Source: Saccostrea cucullata
Taxonomy: Eukaryota
Assembly (NCBI RefSeq): GCF_032062105.1
Contig: NW_026920017.1
Location: forward strand, 62,001 to 126,000
Reading direction: 5' to 3'
Length of the DNA stretch: 64,000 nucleotides
The position numbers and the translations under genes were made by a program. Below, one piece after another: positions 14,615 to 29,183 of this stretch (position 1 is the stretch's first letter; each line of letters starts with the position of its first letter). The notes below the pieces were generated by a model that worked only from the letters and a program-made list of their open reading frames with translations, was not told the DNA's origin and did no database searches.

Positions 14615-17600
14615 TTAGAGATGCGTACATTCGTTCAACTGTTCCGCAATTTCATCGTCTATCATGTATGCTTCAAGGCTTTCAATTGCTTCTTTTTTCG
14701 ATATTTCCATCCACGACGGTGGAATTTTTGAAAAAGTTTTTCCGAACTGCTCTTCAAAATCTTTATAAAATTTTCCAATAACCCATTCCCAGTATCTGGA
14801 GTTTGACATATCAGCACATGGCACAATTTTCCAACGCGGTATTATATTTTTGTAGTTAGAATATAAATGCATTGAGACACATTCCGGAGTATTACAACCA
14901 CACCATTTCGCACATTGAAGAGTGTGCTTAGTTTGTACTTTAAAATCACAAGATTCGACGCATAGTTCTTTTGTATCCAGTATATGAACTCCGTGAATTC
15001 CAACGGGTCTGTGCTGTAGACACTCATGAAAATCATCACTATCAGCGTGGTTTGAAATTGAACTTTTACAAGGTTCATTGCACCAGGGGCAGTTTTCTTT
15101 ACATCCCCATAAAAAGTTCATAATTTCTTCATAGGGTGTTTTTTCTTTCCATTTAATTGATTCTGGTTGTTTCCTGTTATATTCATGCTTGATATCAGTC
15201 AACTTTTCTTTTAAAACGATTAAGAAATAATCAAAATCGTGTATTTCATATTCAGCATAATCAAATAAAGTTGAGGAAATCACTAAATCATCCTCTGCTA
15301 ATTTGTTTTGATATTCATATACCCATTTTCTAATATTTTGCTCCGTAAGATAATGTGTAACACGTGTAGCACAGCCTTTTAAAAAAGAAATCATTGGAGT
15401 CACAAATTCCTCCCGGTGTTGTTGATACTCTGACTGTCTTCCCTCAGCACAACCAAAAAACATTTTTTTTGAGTATTCTGTTAACCACTTTAAAACATAA
15501 GTTTCTGGGGAGGATATGTAGCTCTTATAGTTATCCAGTGATTCCCGATCTGCTAAATCAATTAAAACACTTCGCATTAGATTTTGTTTTTGCCGATCAA
15601 ATTTTTCAACAACAAGGTTCTTTATTTTCTGTCGAAGGATTTCTGCAAATTTTTCATCTAGGACGACCTGAAGTTCATTAATTATAGCATCTACACTGCT
15701 CTCGATGTTCGTTTTATCATTTCTTTGTATTTCTTCCCTTTGGCTTTGTTCCTCCATTTGTATGCTTTCTTCTTCTCTGCTTTTTTTCTTCATTTCTTCC
15801 ATATAACTTTCCTTTGCAGCGATTTCGATCTCCAGTTCTTTGGTATTTTCTGCATATTTTCGTTTTTCTGCTTCCATTAAACCTACATGCTTTTCTCTTT
15901 CTTCTGACAATTGCTGAAGTTCTTTCTTCAATTTTTCTTTTCTTTTTTTTAACAATTTTTCTTCTTCATGCATTTCATTAGCGACTTTTTCAATGTATCT
16001 TTTTCTTTCCTGTTGATTTTTAAGATTTTTTTCTAATCGTATATTAGTTTCCCTTTCCAACCTCAAGAGTTCGTTTCTTCTTTCGTTGTACTCTTCTTCT
16101 TCTTTCTTGTACTGTTTAGTCTTCACGTCCCTTGCACGCTCCATATCACGCAAATCTTGAGTTATTTGCTCTTTCGCTTTCTTTAACTCACAGATATCGT
16201 TTTTCATTTTTTGTTCTTCTAACATTTCCTTGAAAAATCCCCGAAAAGTATTATTAAAAATTTGAAAAGCTTTTACTCTGTATTTTGATAGTTCTGATCT
16301 CATTCCATATTTAGCTTCAAATTCTTTGTTCAAGTGTAAAAACACAGGAAATGTACATTTTGACACATATTGGATGACATTCTCGACAAGGGATCTATTA
16401 ATAGAAAACCACATATAATGTTTTTTATTATGCTCTTCTATATCATCTACAACAAATTTCAGTATCGTATTAAAATGTAACTCATCAAAGCGAGAATCCT
16501 TTTGCAGTAATCCTTCAAAATAACGATCTATTTTTTCAAAGGACAGATCCAATACATTGAGAGCAAGCTGGGGGAAGTTAACGGATTTGTCATCTGATTC
16601 TGAAATACAAATGCCCTCTAAAGGGATGTCTTCCGCCTTCATACTATTCTTCAATCGTGGCAATGTACTTGTAACCACTTTGTCTTCAAAGAGTTTGATT
16701 CTAATACCATGAACCCGTAGTAAAAATCCCTCCATTTCGTTTGTTAATTTTTGTCTCATTACATCGATCCCATCATACGGAGAACATTTTTCATCCAATG
16801 TCTTATTCCACCAGCTTTGAAATTTTTCTAAAACTTGTCCATAATCAGGCTCCGAGTTCTGCACTTTCCTTGCTAATTCCTCTGCTTCTCGCTTTATTGT
16901 GAATTGTTTAGTGACAATTTCTTCATAATTTCTAAGAAATTCTATCCTCTGTTTTTTTTCACGGTTGATATTTTCATCAATCATTTTTTGAATATTTTTT
17001 ATGTAATATTCTAAATCATATAGTCTCCGTTCTTCGAAATGCTTCATGAATTTTCTGTACTTGTGATCGTCAATAAAATCAGTCAATTCACGATTTGCAA
17101 TTTCAGACTCTTTCGATATCATTTCAGAAAACATTTTACTCAGATCATATGCTAGATCATTTGGCATTTCTGCATTTATTAGTTTTGGCCTATTCTTATT
17201 CCACCATTCATGTTTCTTTTCTTCGAAATCCCATGTCAAAGTTTGAAACTTTTTTTCGAGCATTTTACTTGCTATCGCCTCTTGACAATTTCTGAAACTA
17301 AAGATGAAAGTCTCCGCTTGAATTCCTTTCCATAAATTACGAAGATTCCAAAAAATGTTTTTGGCATTACAATGGCCAACATTTTGCTTTAATTTTTCGA
17401 ATATTCTTTTTGTTGCAACAGTTACAGCTTTGCAATATCCTTGCGAGACGTATGGCATTGTGCTTGTATCATTTTCTAGAAAATTTGGAAAGTATATTCT
17501 GTCATTTTTCAAATCGAGATCTATGACAGCTCGAAATGTACTGATATTTGGCATTTGCTCTTCTTTAGCGGCTATTTCTGCCATCTTATCTAAGTGGTCC

Positions 17601-20600
17601 ATGAAATCATGACTTCCTTCTAGGGTCTTCATTTGAGTGTCAGATGCAGAAACATTTTGATGAACAAATAAACCAGACTGTTTGTAATGCATTTTTGGGT
17701 TTGATTTTTTTAGTCTGATGAATGCGTGAACAACGATTTGAAGAATATCACGCATTTCTCCGACAGTTTCTCCGGGATTATTAATGATTGAAACATCTGA
17801 TAATCCAACTGCAAGAGCTGCTATTTCGTTATCAAAATCAATTTTTTCTTCTGTCGTCTCTGGTGCTCGAAGTCCCTCTGTATCAATCACCATTAAGAAT
17901 CCAAATTTGTTGAAATTTTTAGAAACAGGAATAAATTGTGCAAATATCCCTCTTGTACACCTGCCAGCACTTACAGGAAATTGAATCCCAAACATGGTAT
18001 TTAACAATGTGGATTTTCCAGAGCTCTGTACTCCTATAACAGACACAGAGGTAATCAATTCTCCACCTGTATAATTATTTATTTCGGTAAATACTCTTTT
18101 TAGCCAAAGAATAGGAACGTTAGCAGCATCACCATCCATTATTTCAAGTGGTTGGCCGAGAAGAGATAGTCGAGCAACAATGCAAGGCAATTCTTCTATA
18201 ATTCTTTCTGTCCATTGACCCAAACTACCTTCTTTCGTGCTAACGAACGCTTCATAAACTTGACCAATTTCTCGAAAAATGTGCTCAATTCCAAAAGAAG
18301 CATCTGCTATGCTTTCTTTTAGTTTCATCACTTTTTGACTATCTCTTGGATTTTCCCGATGTTCTAATGCTCTCTGTAATTTTTTTCGTAACCTTGGAAG
18401 AGTGCGTTTTGATGTTTCATCTAACCCCTGTTTAACCCAGAATATAAAAAACAGAAGGGTCGAATGGTCATTGCGCAACTCATAGATAGTTTTAACAAAG
18501 GTTGCAATCGCATCATAGGAATCGTTGCATTTTTCAACCTGTTGTTCTCTTATTTCCTTCATGCATTTTTGCAAATGTTCCTCTGGATCCAAACAATTTT
18601 TTCCTTTCTTCTGTCTATTTTTATCTAATTGACTCCATTTACACCAAAAATGTTTTCCTTGAAGTGGAATTAGGTTATCCTTAGAGAAATTTGGGGAGTC
18701 AAGTTGGCATCGTTTTAAAATTTCTATTGCCCTTGCTTTTCCTTCACGACAATCCTCTCTGTTTTCATCAATGTCAATATCTGAACTTGTATGTTGAAAG
18801 TAAGAAAATATTGCCTTTTCAAAGCATTTATTTTCTTTTAGAGATTTCTGCAGTGAAAATATTTTTGCATGTATGTTCTTCTCTATTTTTGCAGAATTTT
18901 CACGAGGAATTTTTTCCTTACCAACAAAAACGAATGGTTTATTTTCGACGAAGACATCAGTAACGATAAGGCATTCCTTGTCCTGTTCAGTTATTCCTTT
19001 TTGGAAGGATACAAGGTTTTCTTTGTTCTTTGCATTTTCATTTATGAATAGAACAAACGCGTCGGAGACGGTCAGGATAAACTTTAATTGCTTTTTGCAA
19101 TTTTTTCCTAATCCATCTCCACGAAGATTAAGAATAGTAAACGATTTCTTTTTTAAAGATTCGTCGTCTCTGGATTTCTTTGTATACCAATATAATTCGA
19201 TCATCCCTGATGATACTCTCCTAGGTTGTTCTTCTCCATTTTCGTTGTCTTGGAACACTCTGTGCATAAGCCCCTGTTGGCAGAGAAGTGAATTTAAAAT
19301 GTTTGATTTGCTTTTTATATGATCTCCAAATCTGAGAAAGGATATTGTCGGTAATTCCATTCGAATGGCTGGCTCAAAGTGATGTAGTAAATATATTTCC
19401 CTTAAAGGCCATACTGAAATTTCTACTGACTCTTTTACAAGCGTGTTATAAACGAGTGGTATTGCATATTGACAGCTGTGAAATTTATGTACGATGAGCC
19501 TTTTTAAAAAGGGATCACAACATTGATATATTGCCATAAACAAATCCATCGGATGGAAAGAGGATAGTCCATCGTTTTCAAATGGAACATGTGAACGTTC
19601 TTGTCCAATTTCTTCACACCCCTTATCTGATTGATTTGACTCAGAGATATCTGAAATACTCTTCCGCTCATTTTTTAACTGTTTCCCGTTAAGGTCATCT
19701 TGAGATGGAATATTTATTGACTGAGATTTAGGGACACATTGTGTCTCATGTGATCTCAATGACATAGAACCAGAAAAGTCAGACATTTTGTTCACTTCGT
19801 CTTCCTTTTCTTTCATGCTACCAGAAACTGACAAGGTCGCAAAGTGGGATTCGGATAAAAACCGAGCTGCATTTTGTCCCGACAAGGAAACGGAAACAGA
19901 AAAATCGGACATATCAATCACTTCCTCTTCCTTTGTCGATTTTTCTATTCCACTATCCGGAACTGTAGTCGTCTCAAACAGTGTTTCCTGTAATTCTTTT
20001 CTTTCCTTGTGTATCAATTCAGATTTAGAGAAGTCAGTCATATTATCCTCTTTATTTTCCATAGTTAGTTTCTCTATTGCGCTACCTCTTGTAGGTTTGG
20101 TCACAAAGTGAGGTTCAGGTAGATTTCTTTCCTCCAGTACTGGTCCCGATGATGACAAAGGTTTAGGTAGCATATGTCGGGAAGAATCAGACTTTATTCT
20201 TCTATGGAATTGGTGAGACCTTTCTTCTGCCTTCAAAGATCTACTGCATAACGGTTTCGAAAGGACGGATATGTTATTCGAATTTTTATCCCCATGCTGT
20301 TTTTGTGTAGACACAAAACGATGCTCTTTCAAATCAGAGTTCTCGTCTATGTCGTTGTCAGAAGTTGAAGATTGCGAGGAGCTTCTTCTTAAAGAAGGAT
20401 CATCTGAACAACTGGATGAAAAAGAGTTTTTTCTTGAATCTGAAGTCATTTTTTTGAGAAAGTTATGAAGAGTTTTTTCTCTAAAATCGCAATCACTTAC
20501 AATCAACTTTTGAAGAATCGACCAAGTTACATCTTCTGTTGACTCAGATTTTGAATAAAAATGTTCATTGATTTTTATTTGGGTGGTCTGTAAAGACAAT

Positions 20601-28940: not shown

Positions 28941-28996
28941 CTTTTACAACACAATATTCCTGTTTAGGCAAATGCTTACGAACATTGACTCGAACT
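28941..28996 (-). other. Predicted non-coding exon 1 of the GVIN1-like gene
   Basis: Starts at the A of an Inr TCAGTT (28998-28993) and ends at consensus donor AAG|gtaagt (28940-28935). Confidence 0.6.
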
Positions 28997-29183
28997 GATT
29001 GAATCATTATCGAGCCGTTGTATAAATACCCACCATTTCACCAACACAGGAACATATTCTATTGGTTGATAATTGAGCTCATGTACTTCAAATTGACCTA
29101 TCAAATCCCGTGCTTTCAAATCACAACACCCACTGTAACAACTAATATAAAATTTCAATATCAGAGTATCAGAGAACTGAAAG
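28993..29183 (-). promoter_or_regulatory. Pol II core promoter (Inr, TATA-like, CCAAT, IRF-like site)
   Basis: On the minus strand: TATTTATA at 29028-29021 (-32 to -25 from the Inr A at 28996) and CCAAT at 29065-29061. An AANNGAAA IRF-core-like site (agaactgaaag, plus strand) lies at 29173-29183. Confidence 0.55.

Follow-up and report, generated by a model that had tools for sequence, protein, structure and literature searches.

What does a very long reading frame on the minus strand of Saccostrea cucullata DNA encode, where does its protein begin, and is the gene an immune effector under IRF control? We addressed these questions in a stretch of 64,000 nucleotides, hereafter the window.

A giant coding exon for a VLIG-family GTPase

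A single frame (14615-20782, minus strand) is free of stops over 2055 codons, or 2053 aa counted from 20776. It is longer than expected by chance, at 34% GC. Its product scores far above the curated cut-offs of two Pfam families: PF25683, the URGCP/VLIG GTPase domain (E=6.6e-108; 361 bits versus a cut-off of 55), and, N-terminal to this G domain, PF25496, the URGCP domain (E=2.2e-47; 162 bits versus 27). By these matches the exon 3 product is a VLIG/GVIN1-URGCP GTPase, as the first-pass annotation had proposed. Such a gene is no surprise in an invertebrate, because NCBI already names VLIG proteins in Ostrea, Saccostrea, Mytilus, Mizuhopecten, Lineus, Lytechinus and Macrobrachium. A 2016 paper reportedly described three prawn VLIGs and their pathogen responses. 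We conclude from the sequence that the gene is an additional member of an already known family, one without the N-terminal head described below. Bivalve VLIGs are commonly annotated automatically, so the gene call itself is ordinary; what it offers is of practical and comparative use. An Rfam search of the window gave no match.

14615..20776, minus strand: exon 3 coding part, 6.16 kb, stop-free, 2053 aa plus stop
20447..20776, minus strand: N-terminal module, aa 1-110, with WxYFE and LGL..FFPxKL motifs
19562..20449, minus strand: Ser-rich linker, aa 110-405, 20% Ser, one 42-nt internal duplication
18719..19555, minus strand: URGCP domain (PF25496), aa 408-686, first GTPase-like lobe with a degenerate P-loop
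17432..18616, minus strand: URGCP/VLIG GTPase domain (PF25683), aa 721-1115, second lobe
15692..16234, minus strand: charged helical insertion, aa 1515-1695, 49% E/K/R, no Pro
14618..15112, minus strand: conserved Cys/His-rich C-terminal domain, LWGC..CPWC..H..C.QHRP, with invariant Cys/His/Trp columns
14103..14158, minus strand: two AATAAA polyadenylation signals, at 14158 and 14108

The N-terminal module lines up with residues ~720-890 of the full-length VLIGs of bivalves. The Ser-rich linker has no Pfam match and exceeds that of headed relatives by ~270 aa; self-BLAST found no internal protein repeats, the only duplication being the 42 nt of DNA in this linker. In the second lobe the G motifs are intact (G1 GxxxxGKS at 915, G2 GRCT at 938, G3 DTEG at 965 and G4 HQNV at 1039), and 115 of 125 highly conserved alignment columns are retained. 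The GxPPMAP motif after G4, defined by its conservation in the present alignment rather than by a citable published criterion, is replaced at 1099-1109, where the window protein and four Ostrea-type rows carry NDTS or NDAS. The pattern occurs in 62 of 73 other rows, and two further non-matching rows displayed are near-variants. Its replacement may alter nucleotide handling. The charged insertion was also considered as a canonical coiled coil, a reading we rejected; its heptad signal is weak (0.05), so we call it a charged helix only. The nearest solved relatives in a PDB sequence search were Sey1 (the best match), GBP1 and GBP2, and our descriptions of the fold are read from sequence.

A predicted upstream start exon

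Exon 3 has no in-frame ATG before residue 38 (position 20665), which lies downstream of the conserved WxYFE motif, so an upstream start is required. Consistent with this, the alignments of 19 of 122 homologues begin at residues 2-7, ahead of Met38, which places the true N-terminus upstream of that ATG and bears out the earlier suspicion that the ORF track had missed it. Start-codon-based callers would cut the protein back to Met38. Upstream sequence on the same strand can be read as two further exons (slashes mark splice junctions).

28941..28996, minus strand: predicted exon 1 (5' UTR), donor AAG/GTAAGT at its end
28944..28985, minus strand: upstream ORF of 13 codons inside exon 1, weak start context
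27928..27972, minus strand: predicted exon 2, 45 nt, ATG at 27960 in A-3/G+4 context, 11 residues, phase 0
20777..27927, minus strand: predicted intron 2, 7151 nt, holding a satellite, a 21-bp array and foldback elements
20777..20782, minus strand: tandem acceptor; splicing at 20782 would add 2 residues in frame

The predicted junctions read AAG/GTAAGT at 28941, TTATAG/AAA at 27972, ATG/GTAAGT at 27928 and TTACAG/GGA at 20776, giving introns of 968 and 7151 nt. The coding part of exon 2 (MDSKKKPFSKM, 33 nt) joins exon 3 in phase 0 for a total of 2064 aa, 99.5% of it (2053 aa) from exon 3. The consensus splice sites, phase-0 join, protein length and single giant coding exon previously reported are all present in the sequence, the exon structure being a prediction. 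Scored with an approximate matrix, donors 28941 and 27928 rank 2 and 15 among 3562 minus-strand GTs; two donors this good and this close arise by chance in the 8.2 kb upstream with p=0.29. Acceptor 27972 falls at the 96th percentile. On a crude scale, acceptor 20782 (TAG/TTACAG/), which is in frame and would add LQ to give 2066 aa, scores 11.3 versus 6.6 for 20776, and an AAG acceptor at 20816, which is out of frame, reaches 11.6. No hidden phase 0-0 exon exceeded the set thresholds in intron 2, which contains a 149-copy 22-bp satellite at 21633-24921. The A-rich stretch at 22-25 kb, considered as hidden coding sequence, is this satellite.

The closest relatives found, from Ostrea, share 45-49% identity with the window protein over the core and C-terminus. 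Two of these Ostrea-type proteins (~70% identical to each other's cluster) begin MEKI.WKYFE at the same place, their Met aligned to exon 3 residue 4. The window gene has Pro there, so its start would be supplied by the upstream 45-nt exon 2. The two RefSeq Ostrea models begin later, aligned to residue 525; with models that start ~520 residues late and callers that truncate at Met38, the subfamily is probably mis-modelled in databases. Protein searches found nothing above ~49% identity, so no homologue confirms the 11-residue start. Among transcript-derived proteins 0 of 6370 candidates carried it, another search gave 15 matches (best 44%), and the 8000 best-scoring short-protein candidates included no same-species or closer relative.

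Could the gene be a real VLIG with another 5' end? Exons 1 and 2 would then be chance or unrelated matches, and the start would be another exon, possibly a head exon beyond the window, or Met38. An ATG-led phase-0 frame lies at 17 of 156 upstream GTRAG donors, and the donor pair and the promoter composite each have a chance probability of ~0.29, but 27928 is the nearest of the 17 with a G/GTAAGT donor, and the promoter, exon 1 and exon 2 agree in order and strand. Moreover, the upstream DNA holds no head sequence, and a Met38 start would cut off the WxYFE motif. We consider another 5' end unlikely; the three-exon model, with its strong donors, strong ATG context and phase-0 join, is the best reading, although unproven.

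Absence of a MACPF head

The gene had been described as complete, which is true of its reading frame but not of its domains, as the MACPF-type head of most sampled bivalve relatives is absent. An N-terminal head of 470-775 aa with a MACPF (perforin) signature is found in 23 of 35 sampled bivalve-clade members, and the window gene and its Ostrea relatives start exactly where the head of headed proteins ends. A head profile of 28 sequences gave no match at E<1 in the protein or in a six-frame translation of the window (best E 1.1), with leave-one-out controls at 1e-20 to 1e-102; the 43 kb upstream of the gene contained no head sequence. When 122 homologues were compared to the window by tblastn, 0 of 287 matches fell outside exon 3. 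This result and the head profile rule out a head coded upstream in the window.

Our comparison reveals that most full-length bivalve VLIGs bear a MACPF head, and we found no paper describing it in the non-subscription literature searched. Besides bivalves, a sea urchin has the head. Krill VLIGs carry a stonustoxin-type MACPF.

We placed the protein in a midpoint-rooted tree of 57 rows, built by a quick method without bootstrap and omitting six proteins with a vertebrate best named match, most fish paralogues and the short-protein search matches. The window protein and four Ostrea-type rows form one group (SH-aLRT 100) within a 35-row clade (SH-aLRT 100) in which 23 rows are headed, and the sister row, P0004, is headed (93). 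The branches are long (terminal 0.35, stem 0.7). The head profile matched 0 of ten named vertebrate proteins; the fish and amphibian proteins branch separately in the tree, so the oyster headless state was not inherited from them. We infer that head loss in the subfamily predates the divergence from Ostrea.

The Ostrea-type proteins resemble the window protein in their N-terminal start point, replaced GxPPMAP and clade, but differ in the linker between anchors (237-245 aa versus 356 aa in the window protein) and in the helical region (615 aa versus 732 aa). Their starts are contig predictions and might miss upstream exons. Full-length VLIGs from bivalves and a sea urchin, ~2400-2460 aa long (Mytilus VDI39186, Pinctada KAK3084300, Saccostrea XP_062612200 and Lytechinus P0035) share the URGCP, GTPase, helical and Cys/His domains at ~31-35% identity. 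The window protein has no counterpart of their 630-775-aa head with its MACPF signature; they in turn lack the charged-helix insert, and their linker is short, at ~85 aa in the three proteins measured. Fish and amphibian URGCP/GVIN1-like proteins, mostly 1500-1800 aa, have the same Pfam pair at 29-34% identity. Human GVIN1, compared by its published description, has the same order of N-domain, flexible linker, LG, helical, LG and C-domain, and is likewise coded in one giant exon with a longest ORF of 1808 aa; it is described as intronless, whereas the window gene is predicted to have three exons (10.1101/2025.03.24.645074).

A drifting, truncated duplicate might also lose its head, evolve on long branches, replace GxPPMAP and accumulate low-complexity expansions, and the Sey1 match would suit a constitutive, non-immune paralogue engaged in atlastin/Sey1-like membrane or housekeeping remodelling. 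However, the 6.16-kb frame is still open at 34% GC, and Ostrea has the headless form too, at 45-49% identity and with the catalytic motifs retained; this conservation implies purifying selection over the long term. We regard a decaying or non-immune paralogue as quite improbable. A functional, spliced, oyster-like bivalve gene for a headless VLIG of the VLIG/GVIN1-URGCP family is the reading that the sequence makes reasonably probable.

Promoter and IRF-like sites

Upstream of exon 1 lies a putative core promoter.

29061..29065, minus strand: CCAAT box, -69
29021..29028, minus strand: TATA-like TATTTATA, -32
28993..28998, minus strand: Inr-like TCAGTT, A at 28996 = predicted +1

These elements and their canonical spacing (-32, -69) are present in the sequence; the composite of Inr, TATA, CCAAT and donor, whose criteria were fixed after the site was seen, occurs once in the window, at the VLIG gene, and at least once in 29 of 100 shuffles (mean 0.40).

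IRF sites were scored against the consensus G(A)AAASYGAAASY, and three had been listed for this gene.

29172..29184, plus strand: IRF-E-like site GAGAACTGAAAGC, ~-180 from the predicted start, 1 mismatch, 5' half-site
28892..28904, plus strand: IRF-like site in intron 1, 2 mismatches, background level
21534..21546, plus strand: IRF-E-like site GAAAACTGAAAGA in intron 2, 1 mismatch, 7.5 kb from the predicted start

The motifs reported at 29173, 28892 and 21534 are there, but all are imperfect, with no exact GAAANNGAAA match among the three. The window holds 11 sites with 1 mismatch to the consensus versus 6.3 in shuffles (n=12), and 84 with 2 mismatches versus 73. Its only two perfect sites (13524 and 44437) lie outside the VLIG gene, in transposon and intergenic DNA.

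The gene could be a direct IRF target through the three listed sites, acting as an antiviral or antibacterial effector. The 1-mismatch site at -186..-176, with its AANNGAAA core, fits this proposal (the chance of an equal match lying no further than 200-500 bp from a fixed point is 0.03-0.08), as do the interferon induction of vertebrate GVIN1 and the activation of ISRE reporters in human cells by oyster IRFs (PMC5557890). However, the gene has no perfect site, 28892 is background, and two sites with at most 2 mismatches occur in 10% of 400-bp windows. We find this full proposal doubtful. The sequence does not support the description of the gene as IRF-driven beyond the one modest site, and direct control through that candidate -180 site is possible, if on the unlikely side. 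No kB or AP-1 sites were found near the predicted start, and the one GAS-like site there is among 78 in the window.

Putative function

Human GVIN1 is described as induced by IFN-gamma and was shown to coat Burkholderia; coat formation was seen for human GVIN1 only, and the effect needed IFN-gamma-induced cofactors (10.1101/2025.03.24.645074). Together with the oyster IRF reporters (PMC5557890), this makes an immune-effector role a reasonable inference, and induction by infection is likely. By analogy with human GVIN1 and GBPs, the cytosolic VLIG protein would bind GTP, dimerise through its G domain and polymerise on intracellular microbes or their membranes. It would serve as a coat or scaffold, not a pore former, and the long linker and charged helix would lengthen its reach. 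The headed and headless oyster pair makes both the role of the head and IRF control without canonical interferon directly testable.

A joint reading, which we think unlikely as a whole, is that invertebrate VLIGs were ancestrally perforin-GTPase fusions, that the headless oyster subfamily coats without puncturing, and that the window gene gained an 11-residue start exon, a longer linker and helix, and an IRF switch at the -180 site in the absence of true interferon. Were this so, a self-assembling GTPase fused to a MACPF head could first coat a microbe and afterwards puncture it, and the window gene would be a natural counterpart of the 1808-aa human GVIN1 ORF with which to test the role of the head.

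Gene structure

The window contains a single long open reading frame of 2055 codons, stop to stop, on the minus strand (14615-20782), and translation from 20776 yields 2053 amino acids, from which residues are numbered here. The first in-frame ATG within this exon is residue 38, but in 19 of 122 homologues the alignment begins at residues 2-7 and covers a W-x-Y-F-E motif. The start must therefore lie upstream of the exon, as the first-pass annotation had proposed in holding that the true N-terminus is missed by the ORF track. The predicted gene comprises the following elements:

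28996-28941, minus strand: exon 1
27972-27928, minus strand: exon 2, with an ATG at 27960 in strong context
20776-14615, minus strand: exon 3, coding part
14158 and 14108: AATAAA signals, beyond the stop of exon 3
-32 from the A of TCAGTT at 28996: TATA-like TATTTATA
-69 from the same A: CCAAT

Every splice junction of the proposed model is canonical GT-AG, and exon 2 supplies 33 coding nucleotides in phase 0, giving the claimed product of ~2064 aa, 99.5% of it from exon 3. Ranked with an approximate matrix, the donors of exons 1 and 2 place 2nd and 15th among 3562 minus-strand GT sites; a close pair of top-15 donors would arise by chance in the 8.2 kb upstream with p=0.29. An ATG-led phase-0 frame precedes 17 of the 156 upstream GTRAG donors, with 27928 the nearest that has G/GTAAGT. 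The readable promoter that had been described does have its TATA-like, CCAAT and Inr elements at the claimed spacing, but the promoter-plus-donor composite, found once in the window, is also seen in 29 of 100 shuffles. Each piece of support for the model is only moderately rare.

The choice of exon 3 acceptor is ambiguous from sequence: an alternative at 20782, which keeps the frame and lengthens the protein by two residues, outscores 20776, and a third candidate, at 20816, is out of frame with exon 3. We conclude that the gene is real and the model probably correct; with the two-residue uncertainty allowed for, we consider the three-exon structure quite likely. A 13-codon uORF lies within exon 1, its start context weak. 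The last codon of exon 2 (27930-27928) is a second ATG with a good context, and leaky scanning there could yield a slightly shorter Met-Gly protein, given the 20776 acceptor; a lipid anchor at such a start is speculation.

IRF-like sites

IRF-type motifs at 29173, 28892 and 21534 had been taken as a possible sign of IRF control. IRFs are described as recognizing AANNGAAA, with ISREs formed by two or more GAAA repeats (PMC7819612). The window has 151 copies of the IRF core versus 118 in shuffles, and GAAANNGAAA is present at none of the three named sites. In a graded test against the consensus G(A)AAASYGAAASY, one mismatch was counted at each of 29172 and 21534 (the window holds 11 such sites versus 6.3 expected) and two at 28892 (84 versus 73). 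A one-mismatch site falls within 200-500 bp of a fixed point with p=0.03-0.08. A pattern shaped to fit these three sites returned a very low p, which we discounted as post hoc. Together the three sites are no evidence of IRF control; one of them is a fair lead. Oyster IRFs are described as activating ISRE reporters (PMC5557890), and oyster Mx and viperin as lying under an IFN-like pathway (PMC8218723); by analogy, IRF control of this gene is therefore possible.

Only two IRF-E sites in the window are perfect, at 13524 and 44437; both lie outside the gene, the former about 300 bp inside the right end of a decayed transposon (9255-13872). The latter belongs to a cluster at 44396-46473, 15-17 kb upstream of the predicted start, with one-mismatch sites at 44396, 45123 and 46462, which could be an enhancer or chance.

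Protein domains and relatives

Two Pfam domains were detected:

aa 408-686: URGCP, E=2.2e-47
aa 721-1115: URGCP_GTPase, E=6.6e-108

Motifs G1-G4 are all intact. Of 125 highly conserved columns, 10 deviate from consensus in this protein; five lie within segment 1099-1109, where the GxPPMAP family motif is replaced both here and in all four of its closest relatives in the tree (the Ostrea-type proteins). The linker after the N-module (aa 1-110), measured between anchors, is 356 aa long, versus 237-245 for the Ostrea-type set and 85-88 for three further bivalve proteins. The helical region is likewise longer (732 aa, versus 615 and 575-586, respectively) because of a helix of 49% E/K/R at about 1515-1695.

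Of 5775 candidates in a homologue search, 367 matched, the top one being Ostrea edulis XP_056003424 (46%); relatives with solved structures include Sey1 and GBP1/2/5. The RefSeq Ostrea models XP_056003422 and XP_056003424 start at a position matching residue 525, and a cluster member runs about 400 aa further N-terminal, so both are likely truncated annotations. A partial protein labelled 'Bonamia ostreae' (P0124, MES1923060.1) exactly matches the first 190 aa of P0134, an Ostrea-type VLIG, and is probably host DNA within a parasite assembly.

A MACPF head and its absence

Many top matches reach 2400-2460 aa, and alignment with the window protein begins only at about their residue 720-780. The signature of this N-terminal extension, or head, [YF]G[ST]H...GG, occurs in 24 of 57 tree rows, one a sea urchin. 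Pfam MACPF scored above cut-off in 3 of 16 proteins scanned, residues 147-305 of the homologue P0013 match complement C8 alpha (E=1.2e-4), and residues 1-300 of Ostrea XP_056003656 grouped with MACPF clusters in the Atlas, at lead level (0.90-0.91, 123-145 shared features). A MACPF-type domain lies in the N-terminal 150-400 aa of full-length bivalve and sea-urchin VLIGs (P0005, P0008, P0013, P0015, P0035, P0125, P0130 and P0136). Krill-type VLIGs (P0031, P0036 and P0037; 2750-3090 aa) carry PF24674 (MACPF_SNTX), PF21109 (Stonustoxin_helical) and FN3 and, judged by these domains, represent another type of fusion between a pore-forming domain and a VLIG.

A quick IQ-TREE, built on the GTPase core without bootstrap or true root, joins the window protein and the four Ostrea-type proteins in one clade (SH-aLRT 100), nested in a 35-row bivalve-type clade (SH-aLRT 100) with 23 headed rows; their sister is a headed protein (SH-aLRT 93). 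A profile of 28 heads found no match in the window (best E 1.1), whereas left-out heads were recovered at 1e-20 to 1e-102. Two Ostrea-type proteins begin at a Met aligned to exon 3 residue 4, starts that rest on contig predictions. Short forms arise elsewhere in the tree too (5 changes), and some may be annotation artefacts. The simplest reading is that the head was lost in an oyster subfamily, and that the window gene would take its start from a small upstream exon.

Human GVIN1, a 1808-aa ORF, has a predicted N-domain, flexible linker, two LG domains and C-domain, with LG-domain dimerisation also predicted, and is described as coating cytosolic Burkholderia (bioRxiv 10.1101/2025.03.24.645074). 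The order of parts is identical in the window protein. By analogy, it may assemble in a GTP-dependent manner on microbial or pathogen-containing membranes and would there act as a coat or scaffold that lacks the pore-forming head, a role we infer from this likeness.

Three prawn VLIGs were reportedly studied under bacterial and viral challenge in 2016 (cited in PMC6060793). VLIG names are commonplace among invertebrate annotations, and GVIN1 is mentioned in clam and mussel transcriptome papers (PMC8674894, PMC10776947). In literature outside subscription journals we found neither work on an oyster VLIG promoter nor a description of a MACPF head on VLIGs. As judged from its sequence, the window gene adds a member to a known family and is a derived, headless form, and the MACPF-head comparison is a more interesting lead than the gene itself.

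Other features of the window

C1q domains are typical of bivalve immune gene families, and one C1q-domain exon is present. This exon, a GC content of about 33% and the leading homologue matches suggest that the DNA comes from an oyster-like bivalve. Features of the window outside the gene model include:

3930-4226, plus strand: C1q-domain exon (E=1.6e-10)
9255-13872: decayed DNA transposon bounded by 54-nt terminal inverted repeats (80%) and containing minus-strand DUF7869 fragments
33025-33406 and 34200-34637: local duplication, two copies some 1.23 kb apart with translated frames near-identical, no match in Pfam
~48900-55300, minus strand: broken Ty3/gypsy-like retroelement whose RT, RNase H and integrase fragments are spread over several frames
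49200-50200: palindromic GATATC-rich repeat within that retroelement
30150-31960, 25934-26296 and 1151-3031: foldback elements with 21/43-bp and 15-bp tandem units

The predicted promoter has one of these foldback elements about 1.2 kb upstream.
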